In this document: positions 24,931 through 41,411 of the stretch, one piece after another
Position numbering within the stretch: position 1 is the stretch's first letter
Layout: the number at the start of each line of letters is the position of its first letter
Assembly (NCBI GenBank): GCA_947466535.1
Contig: CANIEV010000003.1
Span: 38-64,037 of the forward strand
Length of the DNA: 64,000 bases
Reading direction: 5' to 3'
DNA from: Betaproteobacteria bacterium
GTDB lineage: Bacteria; Pseudomonadota; Gammaproteobacteria; Burkholderiales; SG8-39
Position numbers and translations under genes: made by a program
Notes under the pieces: model-generated
The model's database searches: none
Told to the model about the DNA's origin: nothing
Seen by the model: only the letters and a program-made list of their open reading frames with translations

Positions 24931-26820
24931 ATGCAATTCCCCGAAACATTTGAAGTGATCGTTGTGGGTGGTGGACACGCTGGAACCGAAGCAGCGCTCG
25001 CCGCTGCACGCTCCGGATCGAGTACCTTGCTGCTCACCCATAACATCGAGACCCTGGGACAGATGTCCTGTAATCCTTCAATTGGAGGGATTGGAAAGGG
25101 GCACCTTGTTCGCGAAGTTGACGCTCTTGGCGGGGCGATGGCTATTGCTACCGACGAGGCGGGCATTCAGTTTCGGACCCTCAACTCCAGCAAAGGCCCT
25201 GCTGTTCGTGCCACGCGTGCGCAAGCCGATCGAATTCTCTACAAGCAGGCTATCCGCAGTCGCCTGGAAAATCAGGCGAACCTGACCCTCTTTCAACAGG
25301 CGGTGGATGATCTCATCCTTGAGGGCGAACGGGTTGTGGGCGTGGTGACCCAGATGGGCCTTCGATTCAAAGGCCGGTCGGTAGTGTTGACGACGGGAAC
25401 GTTTCTTTCTGGGCTGATCCATGTTGGTCTGGAAAATCATAGCGGCGGAAGGGCGGGGGATCCTCCGTCAATCAGCCTTGCGGCCAGACTTCGCGAACTG
25501 CGTCTTCCTGCGGGTAGGCTGAAGACGGGTACGCCGCCGAGAATTGACGGCAGAACAATCGATTTTTCCGCACTGCAACCGCAGCCGGGTGACGTTCCAG
25601 AACCGGTCTTTTCGCTTATGGGACGTCGTGATATGCATCCGGTCCAGTTGCCCTGCTGGATTACGCACACGAATGAACGGAGTCACGAAATCATCCGGGG
25701 CGGTCTGGATCGTTCGCCGATGTATACCGGTGTGATTGAGGGCGTCGGTCCGCGTTATTGCCCCTCGATCGAAGACAAGATTCATCGCTTCGCTCAGAAA
25801 GGCTCGCATCAGATCTTTCTTGAGCCCGAGGGCCTTACGACGCACGAGTTCTATCCAAACGGGATATCGACAAGCTTGCCGTTCGACGTGCAGCTTGATC
25901 TTGTTCGTTCCATCAAGGGACTCGAAAACGCTCATATCCTGAGACCCGGCTATGCGATCGAATACGACTACTACGACCCAAGGGGGCTGAAGCCGTCGCT
26001 AGAGACCAAAATGATCGAAGGCCTTTTCTTCGCCGGTCAGATCAACGGAACAACCGGTTACGAAGAAGCGGCAGCCCAGGGTTTGCTCGCCGGGATCAAC
26101 GCGGCACGGTACTCACGCAATACGGAACCCTGGTGGCCGCGCCGGGACGAAGCGTATCTCGGGGTTCTCGTGGATGATCTCATTACCCGTGGAGTGAGCG
26201 AGCCGTACCGAATGTTCACAAGTCGGGCTGAGTATCGCCTGATGCTGCGCGAAGACAACGCAGACTTGCGCCTCACCGAGTCGGGTCGCAGGCTCGGACT
26301 CGTTGACGATCTACGTTGGGACGCCTTCAACCGCAAGCGTGATGAAATTGCGCGTGAACAGGAGCGACTCAAATCAACATGGGTGAGTCCGCGAACGATT
26401 TCCGATGCAGATGCTTCGAGGGTGCTTGGCAAACCCATTGAGCGCGAATACACGCTGATGGATCTACTCAAGCGCCCCGATGTGACCTACGTATCACTGC
26501 GTACGCTTCAGGGTGTCGAATTCGCAGACGTGGATCCAATAGTTGCCGAGCAGGTTGAAATCCAGGCCAAGTATTTGGGTTATATCGCGCGTCAGCAAGT
26601 CGAGATCGCCCGTCATGAGCGCTATGAATCGATGGTAATGCCGGCCGACCTGGATTATCGCGAAGTGCACGGGCTTTCGATTGAAGTCCAGCAAAAGCTT
26701 AATCAGCACAAGCCCGCAACTCTTGGCCAGGCATCCCGGATGTCTGGAATTACTCCTGCTGCCATTTCGCTGCTCCTAGTTCACCTCAAGCGCTTGACAG
26801 TGCGCGATCGGGCCGCATAG
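24931..26820 (+). CDS. mnmG: tRNA uridine 5-carboxymethylaminomethyl modification enzyme MnmG/GidA
   Basis: [30 protein letters not shown] and [14 protein letters not shown] motifs. Confidence 0.98.
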
Positions 26821-27470
26821 TGCCGCAGGAAGATGTGGCCGTGGAAATTGTTCTCGCGGACCTCGTGAAGCGGGGACTAACTTCCTTGAAAATGGAAATT
26901 TTACAAGAACATATTGATAAGCTCGTCCAATACATCGGGCTCCTGATGAAATGGAACAAGGTGTACAACCTGACAGCAATTCGGGAGCCAGAGCGAATGG
27001 TAAGTCACCACATCATGGATAGCGCATCAGTCCTTCCGTACTTGCCCTCGAAGGACGTACTCGACGTCGGAACCGGACCCGGCCTCCCCGGGATTCCGCT
27101 GGCGATTCTGCGACCGACGAGCAGGGTCACGCTTCTGGACGTGATTCAGAAAAAAGCTGCGTTCCTCCGACAGGCGGCGGGAGAACTCGATTTGCGCAAT
27201 GTCGATGTGGTCTGCGAGCGCGTCGAGTCCTGGAACACGGACCGTCGATTTCCGGTTATCACGTCTCGTGCATTTTCCGAACTCGCCGATTTTGTTCGTT
27301 CCGCGGAACATCTGCTTGAGGAGGGCGGTCGGTTCGCGGCCATGAAGGGCGTTTTCCCGAAGGACGAGATTGATCGGCTTCCATCGGGATTTCATGTGGA
27401 GAGTGTCATCGAACTCCGAGTTCCCGGAATCGATGCGCAACGTCACCTTGTAATGATCGGACGATCATGA
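26820..27470 (+). CDS. rsmG: 16S rRNA m7G527 methyltransferase RsmG/GidB
   Basis: WNKVYNLTAI, LDVGTGPGLPGIPLA and TSRAF motifs. Confidence 0.96.
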   Translation: MPQEDVAVEIVLADLVKRGLTSLKMEILQEHIDKLVQYIGLLMKWNKVYNLTAIREPERMVSHHIMDSASVLPYLPSKDVLDVGTGPGLPGIPLAILRPTSRVTLLDVIQKKAAFLRQAAGELDLRNVDVVCERVESWNTDRRFPVITSRAFSELADFVRSAEHLLEEGGRFAAMKGVFPKDEIDRLPSGFHVESVIELRVPGIDAQRHLVMIGRS

Positions 27471-28258
27471 CCCGGGTTCTCGCCATCACCAACCAGAAAG
27501 GCGGCGTTGGTAAAACCACCACGACCGTCAATCTCGCTGCCGGTCTTGCAGGTGCCAACAAGCGGGTTTTGCTCGTGGATCTCGATCCGCAAGGCAACGC
27601 AACGATGGGAAGTGGCATCGAAAAGCGCATGCTCAAGGAGACCGTCTATCACGTACTTCTCGGCCTTTCGACTGCGGCGAACGTTCGCGTCCGATCGGAG
27701 TCGGGCGGGTACGATGTGCTGCCGGCGAATCGCGACCTGGCAGGTGCCGAAGTCGAACTGGTGGAACTCGAACATCGCGAAACCCGGATGAAACAGGCGC
27801 TCGAGACGTTCGTCGCTCAATACGATTTTGTGCTGATCGATTGTCCTCCCGCCCTCAACATGCTTACTGTGAATGCGCTGGTTTGCGCCGACGCGGTGAT
27901 GATCCCGATGCAATGCGAGTACTACGCACTCGAAGGACTTTCGGATCTGGTCAACACCATACGCCGCGTCCGGCAGCATCTGAATCCAAAGCTGGAGATC
28001 GAAGGGCTGCTTCGTACGATGTTCGATCCGCGAAATACGCTCGCGCAGAATGTGTCCGAACAGCTTCAACAGCACTTCGGCGACAAGGTGTATCGCACCG
28101 TAATACCCCGAAACATACGCCTGGCCGAAGCACCCAGCTACGGTGTTCCGGCGGTCAGCCTGGATGCGGCATGCAAAGGCTCGCAGGCCTATGTCGCGCT
28201 TGCCTGGGAGCTGATCACGCGGGGCGGCGCGGCCGCTGTGGCGGCAACTGCGGTCTGA
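27467..28258 (+). CDS. parA: Chromosome partitioning ATPase ParA/Soj
   Basis: NQKGGVGKTTT, DLDPQGNAT and IPRNIRLAEAPSYG motifs. Confidence 0.96.
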   Translation: MTRVLAITNQKGGVGKTTTTVNLAAGLAGANKRVLLVDLDPQGNATMGSGIEKRMLKETVYHVLLGLSTAANVRVRSESGGYDVLPANRDLAGAEVELVELEHRETRMKQALETFVAQYDFVLIDCPPALNMLTVNALVCADAVMIPMQCEYYALEGLSDLVNTIRRVRQHLNPKLEIEGLLRTMFDPRNTLAQNVSEQLQQHFGDKVYRTVIPRNIRLAEAPSYGVPAVSLDAACKGSQAYVALAWELITRGGAAAVAATAV

Positions 28259-28270
28259 CAGGAGAGATAG

Positions 28271-29140
28271 ATGAAGGTAAAGAAGGGGCTGGGCCGGGGA
28301 CTCGACGCATTGCTCGATACGGACGATGCGCCGCCCGCGGCACCCGCGAAGGAATCGCTCGCCGTGCTTTCGATCGACCGTCTTCAGCGCGGCAAGTACC
28401 AGCCGCGAACCAGAATGGACGAAGCGTCACTTGCCGAGCTGGCCGCGTCGATCGGTCAGCAGGGCTTGATGCAGCCCATTCTTGTCCGCCCGATTGGCAA
28501 GGATCGTTACGAAATAATCGCCGGGGAACGGCGCTGGCGTGCCGCACGGATCGCGGGTCTTGTCGAGGTCCCGGTGGTGGTGAGGGAGGTCCCGGACAAG
28601 GCGGCGCTGGCAATGGCCCTGATCGAGAACATTCAGCGCGAAGACCTAAATGCGCTCGAAGAAGCACAAGGCCTGAAACGCCTGATCGACGAGTTTGGAC
28701 TCACTCAGGAGCAGGCGGCGGAAGCCGTCGGACGCTCACGCGCCGCGGTGACGAACCTCCTGCGCCTGCTCAATCTCGGCAAGCCTGTGCAGCAACTGAT
28801 GATCGACGGCAAGCTCGAAATGGGACACGCCCGTGCGCTGCTCGCGCTCGATGCGCGTCGCCAGGAGGAACTTGCGCGTGATGCCGTGGAGCTTGGATGG
28901 TCGGTACGCGAGACGGAAAAGCGTGTGAACGAGCTCCTGAACCTCACCGGGAAGGTGGTGATCGGCAAGGCGGCCGAGCCCCCCAAGGTCGATCGTGACA
29001 TCGAACGATACGAGCAGGAATTGTCGGAGCGTTTCGGGACCCGGATTGAATTGCGTCCCGAACGTAAAGGCTCGGGAAAGCTGGTGATCCGATACACCAA
29101 CAATGAACATCTGGAGTCGCTGCTGGCCCGTTTCAGCTGA
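28271..29140 (+). CDS. parB: Chromosome partitioning protein ParB
   Basis: GLGRGLDAL, AGERRWRA and ENIQREDL motifs plus HTH. Confidence 0.96.
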   Translation: MKVKKGLGRGLDALLDTDDAPPAAPAKESLAVLSIDRLQRGKYQPRTRMDEASLAELAASIGQQGLMQPILVRPIGKDRYEIIAGERRWRAARIAGLVEVPVVVREVPDKAALAMALIENIQREDLNALEEAQGLKRLIDEFGLTQEQAAEAVGRSRAAVTNLLRLLNLGKPVQQLMIDGKLEMGHARALLALDARRQEELARDAVELGWSVRETEKRVNELLNLTGKVVIGKAAEPPKVDRDIERYEQELSERFGTRIELRPERKGSGKLVIRYTNNEHLESLLARFS

Positions 29141-29168: not shown

Positions 29169-30443
29169 TCAAGCCGCAGGAAGAAACCGCGCTCGCGGGC
29201 GCAATACAAACCCTGCGAGCCGCTGTTCCATGACGTGGGCGATCCAGCCGGCTGTTCGTCCCAGAGCCCACAATGCGCCCGCGCTGTGGGCGGGCATCCC
29301 AAGCGCAATGGTCAGCGCAACCAGTCCGACTTCAAGACTGGGCCTGAGGTGCAATCGCCGGTCGGCTTCATCAATGAACTCACAGACCAGGCGAGTGTGT
29401 TCGTTGGTAGCGAAAGATCGAGCGATCTGAAGTAGCGCACGAGCTCTTGGATCTCCCTTGGGATACACGACGATATTGAATCCCGGGATGCGATTCCCCG
29501 CCTGCTCGAGAGTCAGTAAGCGCAAACGCACGTCTTCCGAGCTGTGCGCGTCGCGGAGAAGATCCTCCACACGATCACAGCCTGCACCGGCCAATGCACC
29601 GGAGTGGGCGCCAACAGCGGCAAGCATGCAGGCGCGCAGTTCTGCGCCTGTGGATGCTGCGACTCGCGCTGCGAAAGTTGACGGCGACAACTCGTGATCT
29701 GCGCACAAAACCAGCGCGGTATTGATCGCCAGAACGATTTCCGGCGAAACCGACGGCAGCAGAATTCGGGCGATATTTTCTGCGAGACCGCGAGCGCTTT
29801 CGGGTACGACGAAGCGCCGGGCCGGGCCGAGATAGCCGAGGCAACCGGTCAAGGTCAGGATCATTTGCCTCGCCGCGGGGATGGTCGTGCCGCGCCGAAT
29901 TTCGTTTCGTGCGGCCTCGGCGGCACCGAGCATCGTCGTTGCAATGCCGAACACGCGAAGAATCGGCGGGAGTTCGCCCTGCAGCACCACATGATCCATC
30001 AACTCGCCAAACCCGTTAGGTAACTGCTCACTGTCCCAAACAACGGCCTCGAGGTGATCTATCCCTGTCCAGAGAAGCTCCGCGACCGCTTCAAACGAGC
30101 GGCGTTGTCGCACCAGGTCAAGCGCAAGCCGCCCGCGGTAGCGGGGGCCGTCCGGTGTCAGTTCGGTGATCCCGGTGTTGATCACCGGTTGGCCCCAGCG
30201 AAGCGCCGATTCGGCCGCAGCGCCCGTTCCCGCACGCGCATCGCTGCGCGCACGAACCTTGTCGATGTCCTCCCGGTAGTACAACCTGTCCTTGCGGTCG
30301 AGCTGTGCGACCGAGCGGATCAGTCCCCGGCTCACGTAGGTGTACAAGGTCTGAGGCTTGACTTTGAGAATCCGGGCAGCCTCCGCTGCCGTGACGTATT
30401 CGGAAGCTGAGGAAGAAATTGTGGTGCTTGATGCGGAAGGCAT
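29169..30443 (-). CDS. HTH (excisionase/MerR-like) plus citrate synthase-fold fusion protein, catalytic residues substituted; probable regulator (start assigned to the ATG at 30443)
   Basis: N-terminal TAAEAARILKVKPQTLYTYVSRGLI; citrate synthase motifs ADHELSPSTF, GDPRA, GRTAGWIAH and LRPR, with GPLHGG>GALAGA, GFGH>GFNI and NVD>SLE. Confidence 0.8.
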   Translation of the reverse strand: MPSASSTTISSSASEYVTAAEAARILKVKPQTLYTYVSRGLIRSVAQLDRKDRLYYREDIDKVRARSDARAGTGAAAESALRWGQPVINTGITELTPDGPRYRGRLALDLVRQRRSFEAVAELLWTGIDHLEAVVWDSEQLPNGFGELMDHVVLQGELPPILRVFGIATTMLGAAEAARNEIRRGTTIPAARQMILTLTGCLGYLGPARRFVVPESARGLAENIARILLPSVSPEIVLAINTALVLCADHELSPSTFAARVAASTGAELRACMLAAVGAHSGALAGAGCDRVEDLLRDAHSSEDVRLRLLTLEQAGNRIPGFNIVVYPKGDPRARALLQIARSFATNEHTRLVCEFIDEADRRLHLRPSLEVGLVALTIALGMPAHSAGALWALGRTAGWIAHVMEQRLAGFVLRPRARFLPAA

Positions 30444-30482
30444 TTGGAAAACCGCGTTATTCAGCAGTGGGAAGAATATATG

Positions 30483-30505
30483 TCGATTATCAAATCGAGA
30501 TTGAT
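30483..30505. promoter_or_regulatory. Candidate operator in the divergent promoter
   Basis: Overlapping inverted repeats TCGAT-N6-ATCGA (30483-30498) and ATCAA-N7-TTGAT (30489-30505). Confidence 0.45.
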
Positions 30506-30613
30506 CTAGCCTAATTCTCACCCTACCATCCGCCTCCTGTAAAGCGCTTCCGGAAAATTTTACCCAACGTATCCCCGGGACCGAACCCGAAGCCACTCGC
30601 ACGAGGAGGAAGT

Positions 30614-31834
30614 ATGGGCGCCGCTCACGAATGGCCCGAAGAGGGCATCAGCCGAATTCCGTTTTGGGTCTACTCGGACCCCGAAATCTACCAACGCGAG
30701 CAGGAACGCATCTTCTGTGGACCGAACTGGTCCTACGTCGGACTCGAAGCAGAGGTGCCGAATCCGGGCGATTACGTGCGCACGTTCATCGGAGACAAGC
30801 CGGTGATCGTGGTGCGCAACAACGACGGTGCCATCAACGTTATGGAAAACCGTTGCGCCCATCGTGGCGTGCAGCTATGCCAGAAGCATCTCGGCAATGC
30901 CACCGAATTCATGTGCCCCTACCACCAGTGGACTTACAAGTTGGACGGGGAATTGATCGGTGTGCCAATGCGTCGCGGAATCCGCAAGCAGGGCGGCATG
31001 CCCGATGACTTCGACCCGAAGAACCATGGCCTGGCCAAGCTGCAGGTGGCCACGCGCAATGGCGTGATCTACGCCAGCTTTTCGAAGGACGTGAAGCCCT
31101 TCGAAGAAGACGTCGGCGCCAGCATGCTTGCACTGCACGACCGCGTCTTCGATGGCCGGAAGCTCAAGGTGCTCGGATACCAGCGTCAGCTCATTCCGTC
31201 GAACTGGAAGCTGATGATGGAAAACATCAAGGACCCGTACCACGCCAGCCTGTTGCACGTATTTCTGGTTTCATTTGGCCTGTTCCGCATAGACCAACCC
31301 TCAAAGGTTCAGATGGACCCGACTGGGCGGCACGGTGCGCTGATCAACTGGCGCGGCGAGCAGAAGAAAACCGAAGATAACGCCGATATGAAGAGCCTGG
31401 ATGTAAACCTGAAGCTCCAGGGTACAACCATGCTCCAGCCGGAACGCGAGTTTCCCGAGTACACCGTGGTGATGCTCACTCTTTGGCCGAATCTGATCGT
31501 GCAGCAACAGTCGAACACGCTCGCGATGCGTCAGATGATCACGAAGGGACCCAATGCGTTCGAACTCGCCTGGACATACTTCGGCTACGAAGATGACTCG
31601 CCGGAAATGACACAGCGCCGATTGCGGCAGGCTAATCTCATGGGCCCGTCCGGATTTGTCTCCATCGACGACAGCGAAGTCATGGCCGGTTCACAACAGG
31701 GTATCGCACCGTATCCGAACAGCATCGGCGTGCTCGAAATGGGCGGGCGCGAATGGGCCGACCAGCCGCACACTGTTACCGAATCGGTAATTCGCGGCTT
31801 CTGGGCCGGTTACCGCAAAGCCATGGACCTGTGA
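30614..31834 (+). CDS. Rieske oxygenase alpha subunit, salicylate 5-hydroxylase (NagG)-like
   Basis: CAHRG...CPYHQW Rieske site, NWKLMMENIKDPYHASLLH and QANLMGPSGFVSIDD; closely resembles NagG as I recall it. Confidence 0.9.
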   Translation: MGAAHEWPEEGISRIPFWVYSDPEIYQREQERIFCGPNWSYVGLEAEVPNPGDYVRTFIGDKPVIVVRNNDGAINVMENRCAHRGVQLCQKHLGNATEFMCPYHQWTYKLDGELIGVPMRRGIRKQGGMPDDFDPKNHGLAKLQVATRNGVIYASFSKDVKPFEEDVGASMLALHDRVFDGRKLKVLGYQRQLIPSNWKLMMENIKDPYHASLLHVFLVSFGLFRIDQPSKVQMDPTGRHGALINWRGEQKKTEDNADMKSLDVNLKLQGTTMLQPEREFPEYTVVMLTLWPNLIVQQQSNTLAMRQMITKGPNAFELAWTYFGYEDDSPEMTQRRLRQANLMGPSGFVSIDDSEVMAGSQQGIAPYPNSIGVLEMGGREWADQPHTVTESVIRGFWAGYRKAMDL

Positions 31835-31844
31835 GGCGCGAATC

Positions 31845-32345
31845 ATGACCGCTGCTGAACGTTTTCTTAGCCTGAGTGCCCGCGACCTGCGCTTCGAGGT
31901 CGAAGAGCTTTACGCCAATTACATCGGCTGCCTCGACGAGGAGAGATTCGAGGAGTGGCCGGGCTTTTTCACCGAACCCTGCCTGTACCGGATTATCCCG
32001 CGAGAGAATTTCGAGCGCGGCCTGCCGTTGTCGCTCTGGCTGTGTGAAAACCAGGGCTATCTGCAGGACCGTGTCACCGGCATCCGGAAAACGCTGGTCT
32101 ATGGCCCGAGAATGTTGCGCCGGATGGTGTCTGCGATACGCATTCTTGGATGGAAGGACGGGGAGCTCGAGGTTCGAGCCAACTACACCTCCTATGAAAC
32201 GCTTACCGACGAACCGACCCGCGTATTCAACGTCGGACAATATCGCGACAAGATTGTCGTGGAGGGTGATCGGCTGAAGTTCCGCGAAAAACTCTGCGTG
32301 TACGACAGCCTCCTCGTGCCCAACAGCCTGATCTTCCCGCTCTGA
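31845..32345 (+). CDS. Rieske oxygenase beta subunit (NagH-like)
   Basis: YRIIPRENFERGLPL, LQDRV and C-terminal NSLIFPL. Confidence 0.9.
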   Translation: MTAAERFLSLSARDLRFEVEELYANYIGCLDEERFEEWPGFFTEPCLYRIIPRENFERGLPLSLWLCENQGYLQDRVTGIRKTLVYGPRMLRRMVSAIRILGWKDGELEVRANYTSYETLTDEPTRVFNVGQYRDKIVVEGDRLKFREKLCVYDSLLVPNSLIFPL

Positions 32346-32386
32346 GCGGACAGGATTTTCCTAACAAGCAGCGAAGAAAGAGATCG

Positions 32387-32704
32387 ATGAGCAAAGACTG
32401 GATTGAGGTTGCCAAGGCCGACGATATTCCCGACGAGGGCACCCTCCTGGTGGATTGCGCCGGCGAACCGGTGTGCCTGTACAAGATTTCCGACGGCATT
32501 TTCGCGACCCACGACACCTGCTCACACGGCATGGCGAGCCTGGCCGACGGCTTCATCGTCGAAGGCAACCAGATCGAATGCCCCCTGCATCAGGGAACGT
32601 TCGATGTGCGCAACGGCAAGGCTGTCGGCATTCCCTGCAAGGTTGATGTACGTAGCTATCCCGTGAAAGTTGAAAACGGCGCAGTATTCATCAAGGAGTC
32701 CTGA
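32387..32704 (+). CDS. Rieske ferredoxin (NagAb-like)
   Basis: CSHG...ECPLHQGTFD motif. Confidence 0.93.
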   Translation: MSKDWIEVAKADDIPDEGTLLVDCAGEPVCLYKISDGIFATHDTCSHGMASLADGFIVEGNQIECPLHQGTFDVRNGKAVGIPCKVDVRSYPVKVENGAVFIKES

Positions 32705-32705
32705 C

Positions 32706-33554
32706 ATGGCCGCAGTACTGTCATCCAAGATCCAGACCCGTCCCCTGAGCCCCAACATCGGTGCCGAAATTCTCGGGGTCGATCTGACGAAAACCGTCGA
32801 CGCCGTAACTGCCGCGGCAATTCGGGATGCCTGGTACGCGAACAATATCGTTCTGTTTCGGAACCAGAACATTTCCGAGGAAGACCAGGTTCGGTTCGCG
32901 CGCCTCTTCGGCGAACTCGGGCAGGTGATTAACAAGCACGCCGGTGTCTCCAAACAACATCCCGGCGTAATGTTCATTTCCAACATCAAGGAAAACGGCG
33001 AGCTGATCGGCGCGCTGCCTGATGGCGAAATGATGTTCCACTCGGATCAGTGCTATAGCGAAGTGCCGAGCGCGGCCAGCATGCTCTACGCGATGGAAAT
33101 TCCCTCCAAGGGCGGCGACACGCTGTTTGCCAACATGTACAAGGCCTACGAGGCAGTGCCCGCCGACATCAAGGCGAAGATCGAGGGACGGAAGGCGCTG
33201 AACGTATACGACTATGCGAACGTTCCTACCCAGCGCGGCACGACTTCGAACGATGCGCCGCGATTCGCGCACCCGGTAGTTCGCACACATCCCGCTACCG
33301 GGCGCAAGGCGTTGTATATCAATCGACTGATGACCGAATACATTCTGGATATGGACCGGGCTGAAAGTGATGCCATCCTCGCGCAACTGTTCGACATTGC
33401 CGAGAACCCGGCCTGGGTCTACGAACACAATTGGAAAGTGGGTGACATTCTCATGTGGGACAACCGCTGCACCTTGCACGCGCGCTCGGATTTCGACGCG
33501 AGCGAGCGTCGTCTGATGCGTCGAAGTGTCGTGCTTGGCGAAAAGCCGGTCTGA
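32706..33554 (+). CDS. TauD/TfdA family Fe(II)/2-oxoglutarate dioxygenase
   Basis: FHSD, GGDTLFANMY, HPVVRTHP and WDNRCTLHAR motifs. Confidence 0.92.
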   Translation: MAAVLSSKIQTRPLSPNIGAEILGVDLTKTVDAVTAAAIRDAWYANNIVLFRNQNISEEDQVRFARLFGELGQVINKHAGVSKQHPGVMFISNIKENGELIGALPDGEMMFHSDQCYSEVPSAASMLYAMEIPSKGGDTLFANMYKAYEAVPADIKAKIEGRKALNVYDYANVPTQRGTTSNDAPRFAHPVVRTHPATGRKALYINRLMTEYILDMDRAESDAILAQLFDIAENPAWVYEHNWKVGDILMWDNRCTLHARSDFDASERRLMRRSVVLGEKPV

Positions 33555-33555
33555 C

Positions 33556-34545
33556 ATGTCCACCATGCCGAAGGTCCGCCTCTCGATCGCGCTTGGCGAG
33601 TACGACCATACCCGTGATCTGACCAGCGGCCTTGTGCCGGTGGAAGGCGCGGAACTCATCGTTCTCAACCTGCCCCCGGAAGAGATCTTCTTCCGATTCA
33701 CCTTCCATCGGGAATGGGATGTGTCCGAGATGTCGATGGGCAAGTACATCTCCTTGCGCTCCCAGGGCGACAAGAGCATCACTGCCATCCCTGTGTTCGT
33801 ATCACGGGTATTCCGTCATTCGATGATCTATGTCCGCGATGATGGAAAGATCACGAAGCCCGAGCAGTTGAAGGGAAAGCGTATTGGCATTCCCGAGTGG
33901 GCACAGACCGCGACGATCTACTCCCGCGGCATGCTCGCGCATGAAGCAGGCGTCCCGCTGACATCCGTGCAATGGTTCCAGGCAGGCGTGAACGAAGCAG
34001 GGCGGGTGGAGAAGGTCAAGCTCAAGTTGCCCAAGGGCATCCGCTATCAGAGCGTTCCCGATCGGTCCCTGAACGACATGCTGCTCGCGGGCGATCTCGA
34101 TGCCGTGCTTTCCGCGCGTCCTCCCAAAGCGCTGGGCAAGGGCGTTCGTCGCCTGATCCAGAATTTTGAGCAGGCCGAGGAAGCGTATTTCCGCAAGACC
34201 GGGATTTTCCCGATCATGCATGTCGTCGTGATCCGCACCGAGCTGCTCGACCGTTATCCGTGGCTTGCGATGAATCTGCTCAAGGCCTTCGAGGAGGCGA
34301 AACAGCGCTCGCTCGCGCGCATGAGCGACATCACTGCCTCCTACGCGCCGTTCGCCTGGATCCCGGGCTACGCTGCAAAAATGCGTTCGCTGTTTGGCGA
34401 GGACTTCTGGCCCTACGGCCTGGAGAAAAACCGCACCACGATTGAAGCCTTCCTGAAGTTCGGCTTCGAACAGGGGGTTTGCCACAAGAAGCTCTCGGCA
34501 GAAGAGCTCTTTGCCAAACAGGTACTGACCTCATACAAGGTCTGA
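33556..34545 (+). CDS. 4,5-dihydroxyphthalate decarboxylase (OphC/Pht5) family protein
   Basis: GEYDHT, EEIFFR, DVSEMS, PVFVSRVFRHS, GIFPIMHVVVIR and DFWPYG; no signal peptide. Confidence 0.8.
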   Translation: MSTMPKVRLSIALGEYDHTRDLTSGLVPVEGAELIVLNLPPEEIFFRFTFHREWDVSEMSMGKYISLRSQGDKSITAIPVFVSRVFRHSMIYVRDDGKITKPEQLKGKRIGIPEWAQTATIYSRGMLAHEAGVPLTSVQWFQAGVNEAGRVEKVKLKLPKGIRYQSVPDRSLNDMLLAGDLDAVLSARPPKALGKGVRRLIQNFEQAEEAYFRKTGIFPIMHVVVIRTELLDRYPWLAMNLLKAFEEAKQRSLARMSDITASYAPFAWIPGYAAKMRSLFGEDFWPYGLEKNRTTIEAFLKFGFEQGVCHKKLSAEELFAKQVLTSYKV

Positions 34546-34563
34546 ACAGTCCCGGAGGACGAG

Positions 34564-35532
34564 ATGAAGCGATTCACCAGTACGGTAGCAGCGGCGCTTG
34601 CTGTCGCTGCCCTTTCTTCGGTCGCCATGGCGCAGAGCTATCCGAGCAAGCCCATGAAGATCGTTGCTCCTTACGCGGCAGGCGGCGCAGCGGATCTGAT
34701 GGCACGGTACATCTGCGACAAATTCCCGCAGTCGATGGGACAGCCTTGCGTCGTGGAAAACCGCCCGGGGGCGGGCGGTATCATCGGACTCGATATCGTT
34801 CTCAAATCCGAGGCGGACGGGCACACGCTGGCCATGATGCCAAACAACCTGTCCATCATTCCGACCTTGTACGCAAAGGTGCCCTACGACACGCTGAAGG
34901 ACGTCGCACCGATCGCACTTGTTTCGAGCACACCGGTGATGATTGGTACGCACCCGGGTATCCCCGCGAAAACGTTCCAGGAGCTGATGGCTTACGCCAG
35001 GGCCAACGACGGAAAGGTGAACTTCACTACCTGCGGCCCCGCTTCTCCGCAGCATCTCGCAGGTGAAATGCTCGGTTCGCTCGCGGGGTTCAAGTGGGCG
35101 CATATTCCCTACAAGGGCTGCGGCGCTGCGCTCGCTGATGTGCTCTCGGGTACTGTTCCTGTCTTCATCAGCACCTATGCGCACTTTGCACCGCAGATCA
35201 AATCCGGAAAGCTCAAGGGTCTTGCCATGCTCGGCGCCAAGCGCAGCCAGTTTGCGCCCGAGTTCGCCACAGTCGCGGAATCCGGCTTCCCCGGTTATGA
35301 GATCGACGTCTGGTTCGGGCTAGTCGGCTCCACCCGTCTTCCGCCAGCGGTGATTGTCCGGCTCAATGCCGAGGTGAACAAAGCGCTGCAACTGCCCGAT
35401 CTGCGCGACAAGCTGCTCGCCGGTCAATATGAGCCGCTGGGGGGCACGCCGGAACGATTTGCCGAAGTCATCCGTGTTGACATTGCGAAATTCGGCAAAG
35501 TCATCCGGGATGTCGGCATCAAATCCGAATAG
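34564..35532 (+). CDS. Bug/TctC tripartite tricarboxylate transporter receptor
   Basis: Signal peptide, PYAAGGAAD, VENRPGAGG and HIPYKG. Confidence 0.93.
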   Translation: MKRFTSTVAAALAVAALSSVAMAQSYPSKPMKIVAPYAAGGAADLMARYICDKFPQSMGQPCVVENRPGAGGIIGLDIVLKSEADGHTLAMMPNNLSIIPTLYAKVPYDTLKDVAPIALVSSTPVMIGTHPGIPAKTFQELMAYARANDGKVNFTTCGPASPQHLAGEMLGSLAGFKWAHIPYKGCGAALADVLSGTVPVFISTYAHFAPQIKSGKLKGLAMLGAKRSQFAPEFATVAESGFPGYEIDVWFGLVGSTRLPPAVIVRLNAEVNKALQLPDLRDKLLAGQYEPLGGTPERFAEVIRVDIAKFGKVIRDVGIKSE

Positions 35533-35542
35533 CGCGATACGC

Positions 35543-36313
35543 ATGGTCAATTCCCGCTTCGACCTTCACGACCGTGTCGTCATTATTACCGGTGCCGGTG
35601 CCGGCATCGGCAAAGTATATGCTGCCGAACTCGCGCGCGCCGGTGCGCGGGTGGTTGTCGCCGACATCGAACAGGAGGCAGCCAATGCGGTGGCCGAAGT
35701 CATCAACGGCAACGGCGGCAAGGCTGTGGCGGCCCGCGCCGACGTCACCAGCGAGTCGCACATGGCGCATATGGCCGATGTCGCGATGCACGCGTTCGGC
35801 CGGATCGATGCCCTGGTGAACAATGCTGCGCTGATGAGCACGCTCGCGCGCCGTCCCTGGCACGAGATCCCGGTCGACGAATGGGACCGTGTCATGCAGG
35901 TGAACCTGCGCGGCATGTTCCTGGCGTGTCGCGCGGTGTACCCCCAGATGAAAAAGCAGCAGTCGGGTTCGATCGTGAACATCTCCTCGAGCCGCGTGTT
36001 CGAAGGCACGCCGAACCGCCTGCACTACACGACTTCGAAAGCGGGCGTGGTCGGCTTCACCCGCGCTCTCGCGCGCGAAGTCGGGCCGGATTCGATCCGG
36101 GTCAACTGCATCGCGCCGGGACTCACGCTGTCGGAAACGCAGGTCAAGTCATCCAAGCCGGAATACCTAGCGGAGACCGCCAAGGGCCGCGCGATCGCCC
36201 GGCCGCAGATGCCAGACGATCTCATCGGCACGCTGATGTATCTCGTCTCCGATGCGAGCGTTTATCTCACCGGACAGACGATCAATGTGGATGGCGGAAA
36301 GGCGATGCACTGA
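35543..36313 (+). CDS. Short-chain dehydrogenase/reductase
   Basis: TGAGAGIG, NNAA and YTTSK motifs. Confidence 0.92.
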   Translation: MVNSRFDLHDRVVIITGAGAGIGKVYAAELARAGARVVVADIEQEAANAVAEVINGNGGKAVAARADVTSESHMAHMADVAMHAFGRIDALVNNAALMSTLARRPWHEIPVDEWDRVMQVNLRGMFLACRAVYPQMKKQQSGSIVNISSSRVFEGTPNRLHYTTSKAGVVGFTRALAREVGPDSIRVNCIAPGLTLSETQVKSSKPEYLAETAKGRAIARPQMPDDLIGTLMYLVSDASVYLTGQTINVDGGKAMH

Positions 36314-36315
36314 GC

Positions 36316-36903
36316 ATGAGCGTCGCCATTCCCCGTCTTGAACTCGAGCAGATGCCCGCGGATCTGCAGGATTACCTCGGCCCGCGCGTCAAGCGTCTCA
36401 AGTACCTTGGCGAGCTCTTCAAGTGTGCGGCCAACACGCCGGCGGTGCTGTTGTCGTTCATGCACTTTACCGATGCACTCAAGGACTCGCTGCCCGACAG
36501 CCTCACCGAAGCGGCAGTGCTCACCACCGCGACCATGATGCACAACGCCTACGAGCGTAACCAGCACGAGCGGCTGTCGGTGCGCCTCGGCTACGGTCGC
36601 GAATGGGTGGCGGAAGTGGAGAAGCTCTCGCCCGACAGTGCGGTGCTGATGAGCGGGCCCGAGCGCGCGGTTCAGCGTTATGTCATTGCTGCGATCGAAA
36701 CCCGCGGTACAAACGTGCAGGCGGAATTCGATGTGATGGCGAAACTTGTTACTCCTGGCGAGGCCGTCGCAATCGTCATGCTGGTCGGTCGCTACATCAC
36801 CCACGCCCTCGTGGTGAACACCCTTCAACTCAAACCGCCCGTGCCTTCGATTTTCGAGGACGGGTTCAACGGGGACGGCGGTCCCGCAAAGGACAAACAA
36901 TGA
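36316..36903 (+). CDS. AhpD/carboxymuconolactone decarboxylase-like protein
   Basis: Helical protein with EAAVLT...AYERNQH, resembling the YEWxxH motif of the CMD-like family. Confidence 0.6.
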   Translation: MSVAIPRLELEQMPADLQDYLGPRVKRLKYLGELFKCAANTPAVLLSFMHFTDALKDSLPDSLTEAAVLTTATMMHNAYERNQHERLSVRLGYGREWVAEVEKLSPDSAVLMSGPERAVQRYVIAAIETRGTNVQAEFDVMAKLVTPGEAVAIVMLVGRYITHALVVNTLQLKPPVPSIFEDGFNGDGGPAKDKQ

Positions 36904-37886
36904 GCCAGGATCCACTCTGGATTAGCGAATCCGACGTTGTTCAGATGCTCGACCTCGGCGAGGCGATCGGCGCACTGGAAAAGGCGCTCGTCGAGGAAGC
37001 GCGCGGCGAGGCCATGAACATGACCAAGGCGCTCATGCAGTACGGCAAGTCCAACCTGCACGCCGTCGGCGGCAAGCTCGGCAACATCGTCGGCACCAAA
37101 ACCTGGGCGCACACAGAGGGCGGCACCTGCCCGCTGCTGCTGCTCTGGGATGCGTCCAACGGTTCCCTCGTCGCGGTGATCGAGGCGTTCGCGCTCGGCA
37201 ACATGCGTACCGGCGGCATCTCCGGCGTCGCGGCCAACTGGATGGCCAAACCCTCGGCGGATGTGATGGGTCTTGTTGGCACCGGCAAGCAGGCGCTATC
37301 GCAGGTAGGCACCATGCTCGCGGTGCGGCCGATCAGGCGTGTACAGGTGTTCTCCCCCACTGCGGACAAGCGCGCGGCATTCGTCGCGAAGGTGCGCGAG
37401 GAGTTCGGCATCGAAGTCGTGGACTGCACGAGCGCCGAGGCCGCCTGCAAGGGCGCACAGATCGTCACCCTCGTTACCCGGGCCACCCAGCCGTTCGTCA
37501 CCCCGGCCATGCTCGAACCCGGTACCCACCTCAACGCCGTCGGCGCGATCGCGCCTGACCGCGAGGAATTCACCCAGGACATGTTCGCCCGCGTCACCGC
37601 GGTGGCGGTGGACAATGTGTCGGGCGTGCAGGCGCTGTCGCGCGAGTTCATGACGTACTACGGCCGGGCCGGATGGGAGACTGTGCAGCCTTTGTCCAAA
37701 CTCATCGCGTCCGGCCGGCGTCGTACGGACAAGGACGACATCACCCTGTTCAAGGCAATGGGCATGGGCATTTCGGATCTCGCGCTCGGGGTCGAACTCG
37801 CAAAGCGGGCCCGCGAACGCGGTGTGGGGCGGGTCATGCCGCAACCCAAGAAGGTCAAGCCGCGGCTGGTAACCGGGAAAAAGTAA
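36900..37886 (+). CDS. Ornithine cyclodeaminase / mu-crystallin family protein
   Basis: MRTGGISGVA, GTGKQA, HLNAVG and LFKAMGMGISDLA motifs. Confidence 0.88.
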   Translation: MSQDPLWISESDVVQMLDLGEAIGALEKALVEEARGEAMNMTKALMQYGKSNLHAVGGKLGNIVGTKTWAHTEGGTCPLLLLWDASNGSLVAVIEAFALGNMRTGGISGVAANWMAKPSADVMGLVGTGKQALSQVGTMLAVRPIRRVQVFSPTADKRAAFVAKVREEFGIEVVDCTSAEAACKGAQIVTLVTRATQPFVTPAMLEPGTHLNAVGAIAPDREEFTQDMFARVTAVAVDNVSGVQALSREFMTYYGRAGWETVQPLSKLIASGRRRTDKDDITLFKAMGMGISDLALGVELAKRARERGVGRVMPQPKKVKPRLVTGKK

Positions 37887-37936
37887 CCAGCCGTTGGTGT
37901 GAAGAGCAATCGCAAATACCACTCAAGGAGGTTCAA

Positions 37937-39070
37937 ATGAGCAACGAGTTTCGCAAGGACTTCAAGGCCGGAAAGACGCGTTTCATTGACCGCACCGGCA
38001 AACCGCTTATCGACGAGAACGACTACTGGGCGCCGATGATCATCTCGAAGGAAGACATCGACGCCGAGATCGAGCGCCTGGCCTCGATGCCCGTGCCTGC
38101 CAACGGCCGTCGCGAGTCGCTTATTGCGCATCCGCAGTCCGAGGCGAACGCCCCGGGCCTCGCCCCCGGAATCCAGGTCAAGCTCTCTGTGCTCAAGCCG
38201 GGCGAGAAGTCCGCACCGTTCCGTCACAATGCCACTGAAGTGAATTTCTGCATCCGCGGTTCGGGCCACACCGTGGTCGCGGGCAAGACGATCGCGTTCC
38301 AGCAGTACGACGTATGGAACCATCCGTCGTTTGCGATCCATCAGCACGTCAACGACGGCAAGGATATTCAGGTTCGCCTGACCTACTCCAACGTTCCGCT
38401 GCTGCAGCACATGCAGACCTATCTGCCGGAAGAGTACCCGTCACCCGCCGTGCACTCGGTCGATCCGGTTGAAGCGAAGAAGCTCGCCGACGATCCGACG
38501 CGCAAGAACCCGTTCGGGATTTTTCCGATCAACGACGACGGCGGTCTGCTGATGCCCTATGAGACCCTGATCAACCCGACCCCGGTCATCTCCAAGGCGT
38601 TGCACTTCTCCTGGCAGAAGGCCAAGACCGAACTCGACAAGCTCGAGGCGCTCGGCAAGTCTTATGTCGGCCGCCGCCTGTACATGTACTACAACCCGGT
38701 CACCGGACGCACCAACGGCATCACGCCGAACTTCTTCGCGACCATGACCATCCGTCCGCCGAAGATCGTCGACAAGCCGCACCGTCACTCGTCGGCCGCG
38801 ATCAACTACTACTTCCAAGGCAGCGGCTACTCCACCGTCGCGGGGAACCGCTACGAATGGAAAGCGGGCGACCTGATGCTGTCGGCCCCGGGATGGGCGG
38901 TGCACAACCACGCGTCGTACGACGACCACGTGTACGAGCTCACCGTCCAGGACCAGCCGCTCAACCTCTACATGGAATCCCTGCTCTGGCAGGAAGACCT
39001 GAAGCACCCGGCGCTGGTGCTCGGCACCGAGTCGGGCTTCGAGACCAACCGCCAGAAGATCGCGGCCTAG
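37937..39070 (+). CDS. Bicupin dioxygenase, gentisate 1,2-dioxygenase-like
   Basis: Two cupin domains; PHRHSSAAI...GSGYS...WKAGDL...PGWAVHNH and YYNPVTG; strong AAGGAGG RBS. Confidence 0.75.
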   Translation: MSNEFRKDFKAGKTRFIDRTGKPLIDENDYWAPMIISKEDIDAEIERLASMPVPANGRRESLIAHPQSEANAPGLAPGIQVKLSVLKPGEKSAPFRHNATEVNFCIRGSGHTVVAGKTIAFQQYDVWNHPSFAIHQHVNDGKDIQVRLTYSNVPLLQHMQTYLPEEYPSPAVHSVDPVEAKKLADDPTRKNPFGIFPINDDGGLLMPYETLINPTPVISKALHFSWQKAKTELDKLEALGKSYVGRRLYMYYNPVTGRTNGITPNFFATMTIRPPKIVDKPHRHSSAAINYYFQGSGYSTVAGNRYEWKAGDLMLSAPGWAVHNHASYDDHVYELTVQDQPLNLYMESLLWQEDLKHPALVLGTESGFETNRQKIAA

Positions 39071-39080
39071 GGCATCGGTA

Positions 39081-39131
39081 GAACAAGGGGGCGACGCCCC
39101 CTTGTAAATTCCCCAATTCAGAGGGAAGCTC
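39081..39131 (+). repeat. REP-like element, copy 1
   Basis: GTAG-A followed by the ACAAGGGGGCGACGCCCCCTTGT hairpin and a ...CAGAGGGAAGCTC tail; inverted copy at 43542-43594. Confidence 0.75.
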
Positions 39132-39184
39132 ATCAGGATTCATCTGCACTCTGGTACAAATTCACTGCTTCCCAAGTAAGACGC

Positions 39185-39224
39185 CGCCGCCCGTCCGATA
39201 TCCTTGCGGGCGGCGTTTTGTTTT
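39185..39224 (+). terminator. Terminator-like hairpin upstream of the aldolase gene
   Basis: CGCCGCCCG / CGGGCGGCG stem followed by TTTTGTTTT. Confidence 0.6.
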
Positions 39225-39266
39225 GCAGCATCGCGACACATCAAGCACAACACAGGAAGGACGCAT

Positions 39267-40166
39267 ATGATCAAACTGGACCCGAAGTTCCTCATCGGCT
39301 CAGTGCCGCCGCTCATCACTCCGTTCAAGAACGGCAAGGTTGATTTCGACACCTACGGCAAACTGATCGAGTTCCAGATCAAGAACGGCACCCACGGAAT
39401 TCTGGTCAACGGCACCACCTCCGAGCCCTCGACCCTCACTATCGCCGAGCGCAACGATCTGGTGAAGTTCGCGGTGGATGCAGTGAAAAAACGCGTTCCG
39501 GTGGTAGCCCAGACCGGTTCGCAGTCGCATGCCGATTCGGTGGAACTCACCGAATTCGCCAACAAGGCGGGCGCCGATGCCCTGCTGATCCTCACGCCCT
39601 ACTTCATCCGCCCGCCGCAGCGCGGCGTCGTCGAATACTTCGTCGATCTCGGCAAACGAACCAATCTGCCGATGATGATGTATCACATCCCCGGACGCTC
39701 GGCCTTCAAGGTGGAAATGGCCACGCTTCAGGCGATCATGGAAAAGACGCCGCATTTCGTCGGCATCAAGCACGCGTTCGATGACCACAATTTCGTCTCC
39801 GAAATGATCCAGACGCTCGGACCCGAATTCCGCATCTTCGTCGGCCTCGAGGAATTCACCTTTTCGATGATGGCGATGGGTTCGCTCGGGACGATGAATG
39901 CTGCCGCGAACGTGATGCCCGCCAAGGTCGCGCAGATGTGCAACGAGGTGCTCGCGGGCAACATGGCAGCCGCGCGCAAGCTGCACTACGAGATGTTCGA
40001 AGTCATGAAGGCGATCTTCTACGACACGAACCCGATTCCGATGAAGTACATGATGAAGCGCCTTGGCATCATCGAGCGCAACGAGCATCGTCTGCCGATG
40101 GTGCCCGCCACGCCGGAGCTCGAGAAGCGCCTCGACGGCGTTCTGCAGCGCGCCGGCCTGCTGTAA
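39267..40166 (+). CDS. DapA/NanA-family class I aldolase (catabolic HpaI-like type)
   Basis: PLITPF, NGTTSE, YHIPGR, Schiff-base GIKH and TNPIPMK; catabolic context. Confidence 0.8.
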   Translation: MIKLDPKFLIGSVPPLITPFKNGKVDFDTYGKLIEFQIKNGTHGILVNGTTSEPSTLTIAERNDLVKFAVDAVKKRVPVVAQTGSQSHADSVELTEFANKAGADALLILTPYFIRPPQRGVVEYFVDLGKRTNLPMMMYHIPGRSAFKVEMATLQAIMEKTPHFVGIKHAFDDHNFVSEMIQTLGPEFRIFVGLEEFTFSMMAMGSLGTMNAAANVMPAKVAQMCNEVLAGNMAAARKLHYEMFEVMKAIFYDTNPIPMKYMMKRLGIIERNEHRLPMVPATPELEKRLDGVLQRAGLL

Positions 40167-41334: not shown

Positions 41335-41411
41335 GTCGGGTATGGTCAGAATCAATTGGACAAATATAGCGTCCTGGCTGACATTGCGGCTCGAATTAAA
41401 AGGAGGAATGC

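Follow-up and report, generated by a model that had tools for sequence, protein, structure and literature searches.

A helix-turn-helix fused to a citrate synthase fold as a candidate one-component regulator of a divergent aromatic catabolic operon

Why does a gene that faces an operon for aromatic catabolism encode a citrate synthase (CS) without its catalytic histidines, joined to an N-terminal helix-turn-helix (HTH)? The question is raised by a 64,000-nt stretch of DNA from Betaproteobacteria bacterium (assembly GCA_947466535.1, contig CANIEV010000003.1), hereafter called the window, in which the HTH-CS-like gene P0001 lies on the minus strand at 29169..30443. A preliminary description made from the letters had read its product as a one-component regulator that uses a repurposed CS pocket. 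We consider it quite likely that P0001 is a homodimeric one-component regulator of the divergent aromatic-carboxylate operon, with the pocket of the CS fold acting as its ligand sensor. The regulator reading was strongly supported by comparison with related loci, in which the pocket residues are retained, the proteins are under purifying selection, a palindrome recurs upstream, and regulator and operon are co-inherited.

The longest minus-strand open reading frame (ORF) covers 29169..30602, starts with GTG, encodes 477 amino acids (aa), and would reach to within 12 nt of the ATG of the divergent gene. The extent adopted here on the basis of the ORF list, the translation, and Pfam (29169..30443, 424 aa from an ATG, stop codon counted) is the likely one, because most close homologues measure 423-430 aa and because a 1-nt indel further upstream breaks the long frame in a homologous locus of 97% identity (L001; comparison loci are numbered with the prefix L and proteins with the prefix P). 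An alternative in-frame GTG start at 30521, giving 450 aa, is possible.

Pfam analysis indicated an HTH_17 domain (PF12728; E 3.4e-8, 34.1 bits against a cut-off of 27) and a Citrate_synt domain (PF00285; E 2.5e-49, 168.7 bits against 27) in P0001. MerR_1 was barely over its cut-off (22.4 against 21.6 bits) and MerR (PF00376) was below threshold (21.0 against 28.2 bits). With all 20 NCBIfam models for citrate synthase, methylcitrate synthase, and citryl-coenzyme A (CoA) lyase, P0001 scored far under the cut-off (best 135 against 332 bits). The N-terminal winged HTH of the HTH_17/MerR-like type (residues 16-63; Pfam and AlphaFold2 model) is encoded at 30255..30398 and the CS-fold domain, the putative sensor (residues 83-417; Pfam, alignments, and Foldseek), at 29193..30197, both on the minus strand. 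An AlphaFold2 model built from a 141-sequence alignment was confident, with a predicted local distance difference test score (pLDDT) of 88.6 and a predicted template modelling (TM) score of 0.80. In it, a small winged HTH at residues 16-56 (strand-helix-helix-strands, pLDDT about 90) was followed by a long helix (57-71) and, after a linker of poor order, by an all-helical body from about residue 93. When the model was searched with Foldseek, the best solved matches were all methylcitrate or citrate synthases, with TM scores (target) of up to 0.83. The joining of an HTH to a CS fold, as proposed in the preliminary description, was thus borne out by Pfam, AlphaFold2, and Foldseek, and P0001 unites a DNA-binding domain with a putative sensor domain in a single chain. 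Among the 141 sequences, the recognition region of the HTH (T32, L33, Y34, Y36, S38, R39, G40) was nearly invariant.

Subsequently, the active site was compared by HMMER alignment with Mycobacterium tuberculosis CitA (8gll and related entries; E 1e-25), which we take to be an active enzyme from the depositors' names. GALAGA of P0001 falls on GPLHGG and GFNI on GFGH, so that in pig CS numbering the catalytic residues H274, H320, and D375 correspond to A285, I324, and E371. The carboxylate-binding residues H238, R329, R401, and R421' correspond to H250 (motif ADHE), R333 (GDPR), R396 (GRTAGW), and R415 (LRPR) of P0001. All motifs were found as quoted in the preliminary description, with GALAGA, GFNI, and SLE at the catalytic positions and DHE, DPR, GRTAGW, and LRPR intact. 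The catalytic loss concluded there from the three catalytic motifs stood as far as both histidines are concerned, but the glutamate of SLE is not diagnostic: E371 gives no evidence of inactivity, because CitA (NVE) and, of 22 bona fide CS genes included in the phylogeny below, 18 (H/H/E) also carry glutamate at this position. Judged from the alignment, what counts for catalytic loss is that both histidines are gone, not E371. Because both acid/base histidines are lost, the CS domain would no longer be able to condense acetyl-CoA with oxaloacetate.

A different picture was obtained for the carboxylate-binding residues. In an alignment of 201 family sequences, which is biased towards close relatives, DHE was retained in 198 and DPR in 200, and the two later arginines were retained throughout; R103, R260, R333, R396, and R415 were invariant in the 141-row alignment. 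In the presumed catalytically dead clade, the former catalytic histidine positions were consistently hydrophobic (L/L, L/I, or A/I), as if the pocket had been remodelled and selection continued to act on it. The loss of a CoA-binding lysine or arginine after GFGH was also considered and was dropped as uninformative, as PrpC-type enzymes lack this residue as well.

P0001 is not a one-off, being one of four paralogues in its genome and a member of a large family. A protein search gave 4293 matches among 8000 scored candidates, and PF12728 and PF00285 occurred together in 98 of 120 proteins among the matches listed; where the source names these proteins, they are called 'citrate synthase (family protein)'. 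The ESM Atlas gave the same picture of the family. Relatives were encoded in 567 of 600 candidate stretches (contigs from one genome per species), from which 80 loci were kept for locus comparisons. These belong to Burkholderiales (44-97% identity), Myxococcota (about 40%), and Xanthomonadales (about 35%), and also include Melainabacteria and Obscuribacterales, Chloroflexi, Actinobacteria, and Acidobacteria. The HTH was present in 78 of the 80, the remaining two being truncated by contig ends. Sequence comparison thus describes the HTH-CS fusion as a large, widespread, monophyletic family across several phyla.

The catalytic triads of the 201 aligned sequences were most often L/L/E (102), followed by H/H/D (43), H/T/D (13), L/I/E (12), and A/I/E (4; the window copy and its nearest relatives), with other, minor states making up the rest. 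A FastTree phylogeny of the CS domain (LG+gamma, 342 columns, 146 sequences, every third database match kept) placed 124 fusion proteins apart from 22 bona fide CS, including those of the same genome; the support of this split was ambiguous after re-rooting (0.36 or 1.0) and was not relied on. The 61 sequences without the first histidine formed one clade (support 0.90), inside which the 50 sequences without both histidines were nested (0.76). Fifteen sequences from Melainabacteria that lack only the second histidine formed a group of their own (1.0), sister to the clade lacking the first histidine (0.97). The ratio of nonsynonymous to synonymous substitution (dN/dS, Nei-Gojobori) was 0.11-0.36 in nine pairs from the dead clade and 0.145 for the window against L001, indicating that these proteins are maintained and are not decaying pseudogenes.

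The source genome (a 4.6-Mb assembly in 341 contigs) carries two bona fide CS genes elsewhere (465 and 402 bits), and P0001 is consequently not the enzyme of the tricarboxylic acid cycle. The other three HTH-CS paralogues, C93 (L090 4925-6226), C20 (L091 6839-8197), and C63 (L092 1457-2800), carry the partly different triads T/H/P, V/H/E, and I/H/E.

The quaternary structure was examined next. A homodimer model of P0001 scored 0.78, against 0.00 for the best control, the runs agreeing in at least 88% of contacts at a partner pLDDT of at least 80. Among proteins solved as pairs of one chain, 20 of 30 attained the same mark, and among those solved as single chains, 1 of 23. As CS dimers are already solved, this score indicates likeness and not binding. 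The predicted interface is formed by CS helices 251-287 and the C-terminal arm (412-423). That it lies wholly in the CS domain is in line with another explanation, in which the CS-like domain is a dimerisation scaffold that senses nothing, control being constitutive or exerted through the protein level. We regard this explanation as unlikely, because a plain scaffold would have no need of carboxylate-binding residues, whereas H250, R333, R396, and R415 show little or no variation in the 141-201 sequences compared despite the lost catalysis; the hydrophobic residues at the former histidine positions, with the remodelled pocket that they suggest, also argue against it. In the sensor reading that we prefer, the pocket of one histidine and three arginines would now bind the ligand, presumably an aromatic (di)carboxylate that is either the carboxylated aromatic substrate or an intermediate of the operon. 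Citrate synthases are known to undergo hinge closure. A ligand-driven closure of the CS fold from the open to the closed form could alter the engagement of the HTH with its operator.

A candidate for this operator was found in the 170-bp intergenic region that the regulator gene and the operon have in common (30444-30613). An inverted repeat lies at 30480-30501, with the arms ATGTCGATT and AATCGAGAT. Its perfect core, TCGATT-ATCA-AATCGA at 30483-30498, was the sole perfect match in the 64-kb window; looser matches (up to two mismatches) in the window were at chance level (6 against 3.7 expected). The 22-nt extended pattern likewise had its sole perfect match in the genome at this place, and three matches with up to two mismatches were obtained in all, two of them at other places in the genome, against none for a control pattern. 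The candidate operator is formed by the palindrome and its conserved flank GATTGATC (30480..30506, no strand assigned; repeat scan and locus comparison).

Comparison of the 80 loci gave, in gene orientation, the family motif aTCAAT(C/A)T(C/T)GATT-N4-5-(A/G)ATC(G/A)A a short way upstream of the family gene. With up to two mismatches, the 12-mer TCAATCTCGATT matched 48 times in 27,955 bp of upstream windows, in 47 of the 80 loci and always on the gene strand, against 51 times in 904,040 bp elsewhere, an approximately 30-fold enrichment. The half-sites covary, being TCGATT/AATCGA in Burkholderiales and Myxococcota and TTGATT/AATCAA in Chloroflexi, Actinobacteria, Acidobacteria, and Xanthomonadales. 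The inverted repeats noticed in the spacer at the outset were therefore real, and they are conserved, with covarying half-sites, beyond the window. The motif stands in a different frame relative to the ORF in L002-L005, L008, and L032, and an in-frame TAG intervenes in L007; its nucleotides were translated by gene callers as QSRF in P0004 and P0006 but as INLD in P0009, P0032, P0050, P0057, P0061, and P0062. Because the reading frame of the motif varies among homologues, the DNA rather than the peptide seems to be the conserved object. Operator variants of the paralogues in the same genome (TCGATC..AGTCGA at L090 and TTGAGT..ACTCAA at L092) have diverged, as would be expected if cross-talk among paralogues is avoided. 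Comparison of orthologues thus revealed a conserved candidate cognate operator near the family's own gene. In our model, the HTH_17/MerR-like domain would bind TCGATT-N4-AATCGA in the shared region, and the CS-type homodimer would present its two HTH domains to the 16-bp palindrome.

The divergent operon of roughly ten aromatic-catabolism genes was found as originally described (30614..40166, plus strand; Pfam). It begins with genes for a Rieske oxygenase alpha subunit (30614-31834), a beta subunit (31845-32345), and a ferredoxin (32387-32704), for which the nearest NCBIfam models were those of the three-component anthranilate dioxygenase AndAc/AndAd/AndAb, below their cut-off (441 against 750 bits). 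These are followed by a TauD-like gene (32670-33554), a gene with no Pfam or NCBIfam match (33526-34545), and genes for a TctC-type binding protein (34564-35532), an SDR protein (35429-36313), an OCD-like protein (36603-37886), a bicupin (37673-39070), and a DHDPS/HpaI-like protein (39204-40166), all on the plus strand. The bicupin weakly resembled 5-aminosalicylate and gentisate dioxygenases in NCBIfam. The gene content suggests that the substrate of the operon is probably a substituted benzoate. The Rieske alpha subunits of the window and L002 were 74% identical and the regulators 64% identical, pointing to co-inheritance of regulator and operon. A further ORF at 35881-36903, which has no Pfam or NCBIfam match and shares sequence with both the SDR and the OCD gene, may not be a true gene.

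Subsequently, the neighbours of the family gene in other genomes were determined with crude gene calls (by ORF length and G+C content at third codon positions), in which the family gene was called in 71 of the 80 loci, nine being omitted, and the upstream gene in 67; 130 upstream proteins were scanned against Pfam. The nearest upstream gene was divergent in 53 of the 67 loci and on the same strand in 14. No CS neighbour was found in any of the 14 loci of the clade lacking the first histidine. The neighbours there were Rieske alpha and beta subunits in five loci, UbiX/UbiD in two, TRAP DctP/DctQ in two, SDR with DctP in two, and an amidohydrolase_2, LysE, or CoA-transferase/HMGL protein in one locus each. 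What all partners of the dead clade share is the transport (TctC) and the chemistry of carboxylates. The genes downstream of the family gene vary (nadD-like, TonB receptor, parB, or acyl-CoA dehydrogenase).

Among the 53 loci with at least the first histidine intact, 28 had a high-scoring Citrate_synt gene within two genes, often together with a PrpB-like phosphoenolpyruvate mutase and aconitase (Xanthomonadales) or with malate synthase and isocitrate lyase (Melainabacteria). Six further loci had the companion genes only, so that 34 of the 53 were associated with CS, isocitrate lyase, malate synthase, PrpB-like, or aconitase genes. About 14 loci of Myxococcaceae had a gene for an S-adenosylmethionine-dependent methyltransferase with a cupin or hydrolase gene instead of CS. 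Intact-triad members had genuine (methyl)citrate synthase or glyoxylate-shunt genes as neighbours, and the Burkholderiales clade without the histidines had operons for the catabolism or transport of aromatic compounds or carboxylates. In the Myxococcaceae (L014-L031, L035, L067), the divergent Methyltransf_11 gene with a cupin or alpha/beta hydrolase gene was conserved, and the operator fell inside the 5' part of the annotated coding sequence, its spacings being divisible by 3. In the Melainabacteria (L034, L036, L039-L042, L044, L051, L055, L056, L071), the HTH-CS gene (H/T/D or H/S/D) stood directly 3' of a CS gene on the same strand, and malate synthase or isocitrate lyase genes were divergent. 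This arrangement looks like an operon of CS plus regulator facing the glyoxylate shunt. A sigma-54-like GG-N10-GC element upstream of the prp genes of Xanthomonadales was considered and dropped, since it was inconsistent between loci.

The surroundings of the paralogues in the same genome were also determined. L090 is divergent from a gene for a TRAP binding protein, near Rieske and VanA-type oxygenase genes; L092 is divergent from a gene of no assigned function, followed by TctC, PrpD-like, and OCD genes; and L091 comes immediately after a LysR gene.

Cultured relatives were sought by tblastn on plasmids and chromids (25 records), and six contexts were inspected. In Massilia sp. WG5, the homologue is divergent from genes for a ferredoxin, an aldehyde dehydrogenase, a Rieske protein, TauE, nadC, a PDR/VanB reductase, and a Gfo/Idh/MocA dehydrogenase, and TCAATATCGATTAAGCAATCAA lies approximately 30 nt upstream of it. 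The Rieske protein matched PDB 7fjl/7v25/7v28 with an E value of 5e-245, and its match to a chain deposited as 'putative phthalate 4,5-dioxygenase' had a value of 7e-70; we take 7v25 to be the Comamonas phthalate dioxygenase. The nadC gene belongs to phthalate operons, and PdxA-like dehydrogenases occur in terephthalate operons. In Caballeronia, the homologue is divergent from a gene for a thiamine pyrophosphate enzyme and convergent with a cluster of Rieske alpha/beta, PdxA-like, and MFS genes, with TTGATT-GTTG-AATCAA upstream. The homologue of P. fungorum is divergent from genes for an aromatic ring-hydroxylating dioxygenase alpha subunit, a ferredoxin, and a flavin adenine dinucleotide-dependent oxidoreductase, and that of P. 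largidicola from cupin, HpaI-like aldolase, and OCD genes, which correspond to the module of the distal operon in the window. In Ralstonia, the homologue is upstream of cupin, flavin monooxygenase, and FAH-family genes. The copy on plasmid pACP4.2 of Acidovorax carolinensis (L097 12007-13229) is annotated as two overlapping coding sequences with IS5 transposases on both sides and is probably disrupted; three places of this plasmid record matched.

The promoter geometry was then considered. The promoter scan called one site, for the regulator gene, with TTTACA, an 18-nt spacer, and GAGAAT (30514..30543, minus strand; one found against 0.2 expected in shuffles). The palindrome lies just downstream of the start site predicted from it, which suggests autorepression. 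A candidate operon promoter was read by hand on the plus strand (30501..30529), with TTGATC at 30501-30506, a 17-nt spacer, and TACCAT at 30524-30529. The operator would thus stand directly upstream of the -35 element of the operon, centred near -45, a position that would be activator-like. The predicted promoters were inspected for the layout typical of MerR, in which a 19-20 bp spacer contains the operator, and it was not found; the palindrome ends 2 nt before the -35-like TTGATC. Metatranscriptome contigs from four lake or freshwater runs (95-99% alike, from related strains) covered 29169-29550, the 3' end of the regulator gene, and 30554-31626, the 5' half of the Rieske alpha gene, three of them starting at 30554, 30562, and 30576, upstream of the Rieske ATG. 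The libraries may contain DNA, the contigs give neither transcript ends nor expression levels, and the gap at 29629-30548 is uninformative; the contig starts are weakly compatible with the proposed geometry. DNA runs of four studies contained the stretch almost completely. For P0001 itself, the binding of DNA, the identity of the ligand, and the direction of control (activation or repression) are inferred.

Several observations weigh against the assignment of P0001 as regulator of this operon. The HTH alone found no significant solved relative among PDB sequences, the best being 6ama (presumably BldC) with an E value of 0.74. For the window, L001, P0004, P0006, and Myxococcota, motif and ORF share one frame, the spacing to the HTH being a multiple of 3, and in the window, L001, and Myxococcota it would read QSRFDNRH; in these cases, conservation could be partly at the peptide level. 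The 12-mer with up to two mismatches was missing from 33 of the 80 loci, including paralogue-like and Melainabacteria members, no obvious motif was seen by eye at the Ralstonia homologue, and a MarR gene adjoins the Massilia homologue. The plus-strand promoter is weak (8/12) and under the threshold of the scan. The layout TTGAyn-N16-18-TAnnnT was found in just 17 of 42 palindrome loci, which is a lower bound, as the pattern took the wrong palindrome in L052 and L063 and found none in L069, left uncounted, all three of which have TTGATC/G-17-TAGACT by eye. In the 17 loci, TTGAyn begins 2 nt past the palindrome; they include L002-L005, L007, L032, and the paralogue L092, and the layout also occurs in Chloroflexi and Actinobacteria loci whose divergent gene is a bona fide CS. 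Finally, the statement that the operon has no other adjacent upstream regulator was correct for that side, but a LysR gene (40411-41508, minus strand) lies at its far (3') end.

This LysR gene, together with the calling of a promoter-like site on the regulator side only, would fit an explanation in which P0001 only autoregulates or acts elsewhere, the Rieske operon being under this LysR protein or another factor. We consider this improbable: a distance of 10 kb separates the operon promoter from the LysR gene, which is itself divergent from the next cluster (41412 onward, with TctC), the palindrome abuts an operon-facing -35-like element in many loci, L001-L005 have inherited the Rieske operon together with the regulator, and the genome contains no second perfect copy of the 22-nt site. 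The LysR protein, nearest to the BsrA and LeuO models but below their cut-offs, probably controls the second cluster rather than the Rieske operon. That cluster begins at 41412 on the plus strand and comprises a gene without Pfam or NCBIfam match (41412-42467), a TctC gene (42538-43500), a Meth_synt_2-like gene, and a gene for a periplasmic binding protein.

It is very improbable that P0001 is still an enzyme of other CS-fold chemistry (a lyase, or a thioesterase acting on a CoA ester) with the HTH as a moonlighting or localisation add-on, for although 43 of the 201 family sequences have an intact H/H/D triad and could be active 'trigger enzymes', and the same genome encodes three citryl-CoA-lyase-like CS-fold proteins, so that the fold supports other chemistry, both acid/base histidines have given way to Ala and Ile in P0001 and to two Leu residues in most of the clade, P0001 lies far under the cut-off of every CS and citryl-CoA lyase model, and the conserved upstream palindrome argues for the use of the HTH in DNA binding.

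The regulator reading of P0001 can be extended to the family, and for this wider proposal we consider the case evenly balanced. The HTH-CS fusions may constitute an unrecognised family of metabolite-sensing transcription factors over several phyla, in which a series from enzyme to sensor is extant. The intact-triad members (Chloroflexi, Actinobacteria, Xanthomonadales, and Myxococcota) would bind the shared palindrome by (methyl)citrate synthase, methylisocitrate lyase, or glyoxylate-shunt genes, and might, as still active 'trigger enzymes', signal the presence of oxaloacetate, acyl-CoA, or (methyl)citrate. In Burkholderiales, one and then both histidines would have been lost, the site would have become hydrophobic, and the proteins, multiplied as paralogues, would have been recruited to catabolic and transporter operons as sensors of aromatic carboxylates, phthalate-type compounds among them. 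The survival of the intermediate stages (intact triad, one histidine lost, both lost) in living lineages is unusual. If the proposal is true, CS joins the short list of enzyme folds reused as sensors of transcription factors, and the annotation of many 'citrate synthase (family protein)' entries, which can distort metabolic reconstructions, would be corrected. It would also give the (methyl)citrate and glyoxylate-shunt genes of several phyla a predicted regulator and supply candidate biosensor parts for aromatic carboxylates, such as phthalate-type breakdown products of plasticisers; the operon beside the Massilia homologue is phthalate-dioxygenase-like.

Among known systems, P0001 resembles citrate and 2-methylcitrate synthases (CitA 8gll; PrpC 3hwk and 6s6f) in its fold (Foldseek TM up to 0.83), its predicted dimer interface including the C-terminal arm, and the set of one histidine and three arginines, but differs from them in A285 and I324, the N-terminal HTH, the model scores below cut-off, and the separate clade. 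With the MerR superfamily and HTH_17 proteins (excisionase, BldC-like) it shares the N-terminal winged HTH followed by a long helix and a palindromic target with short half-sites; unlike MerR, it has a whole enzyme fold in place of the C-terminal effector region, and its candidate operator would lie upstream of the -35-like element and not inside a 19-20 bp spacer. One-component regulators with enzyme-derived sensors include MocR/GabR (aminotransferase fold), ROK/NagC, and NrtR. Like these, P0001 joins a DNA-binding domain to a duplicated enzyme fold, with catalysis apparently lost or reduced, that would report a metabolite related to the ancestral substrate; unlike these, its sensor fold is that of CS. 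The nearest published concept is that of CitA in Caulobacter, whose control of the cell cycle does not depend on its catalysis as a citrate synthase (PMC7083601); like the proposed P0001, it is a CS-fold protein with a regulatory role that needs no enzyme activity. The same text describes CitC, which is encoded beside the functional CitB and fails to complement an E. coli gltA mutant, an arrangement that resembles the pairs of CS and HTH-CS found here. Unlike P0001, Caulobacter CitA is an active enzyme, and the searched text of that paper mentions no HTH or DNA binding. SCO5831 is mentioned elsewhere as 'citrate synthase-like', with no regulatory claim (PMC9739823). A full-text literature search found no description of an HTH-citrate synthase regulator, in agreement with the initial remark that no characterised example was known.

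The rsmG (gidB), parA, and parB genes lie at 26820-29140, immediately downstream of the regulator gene, which places the locus near the chromosome origin. A homologue in another genome (L006) also adjoins parB, yet is divergent from UbiX/UbiD and not from a Rieske operon; the regulator appears to keep its chromosomal place while the partner operon differs. The G+C content was 0.48-0.57 in the first 28 kb of the window (minimum 0.477 at 10-12 kb) and 0.58-0.68 thereafter, a shift that may stem from an island of different composition or from a join made in assembly, upstream of the origin genes.

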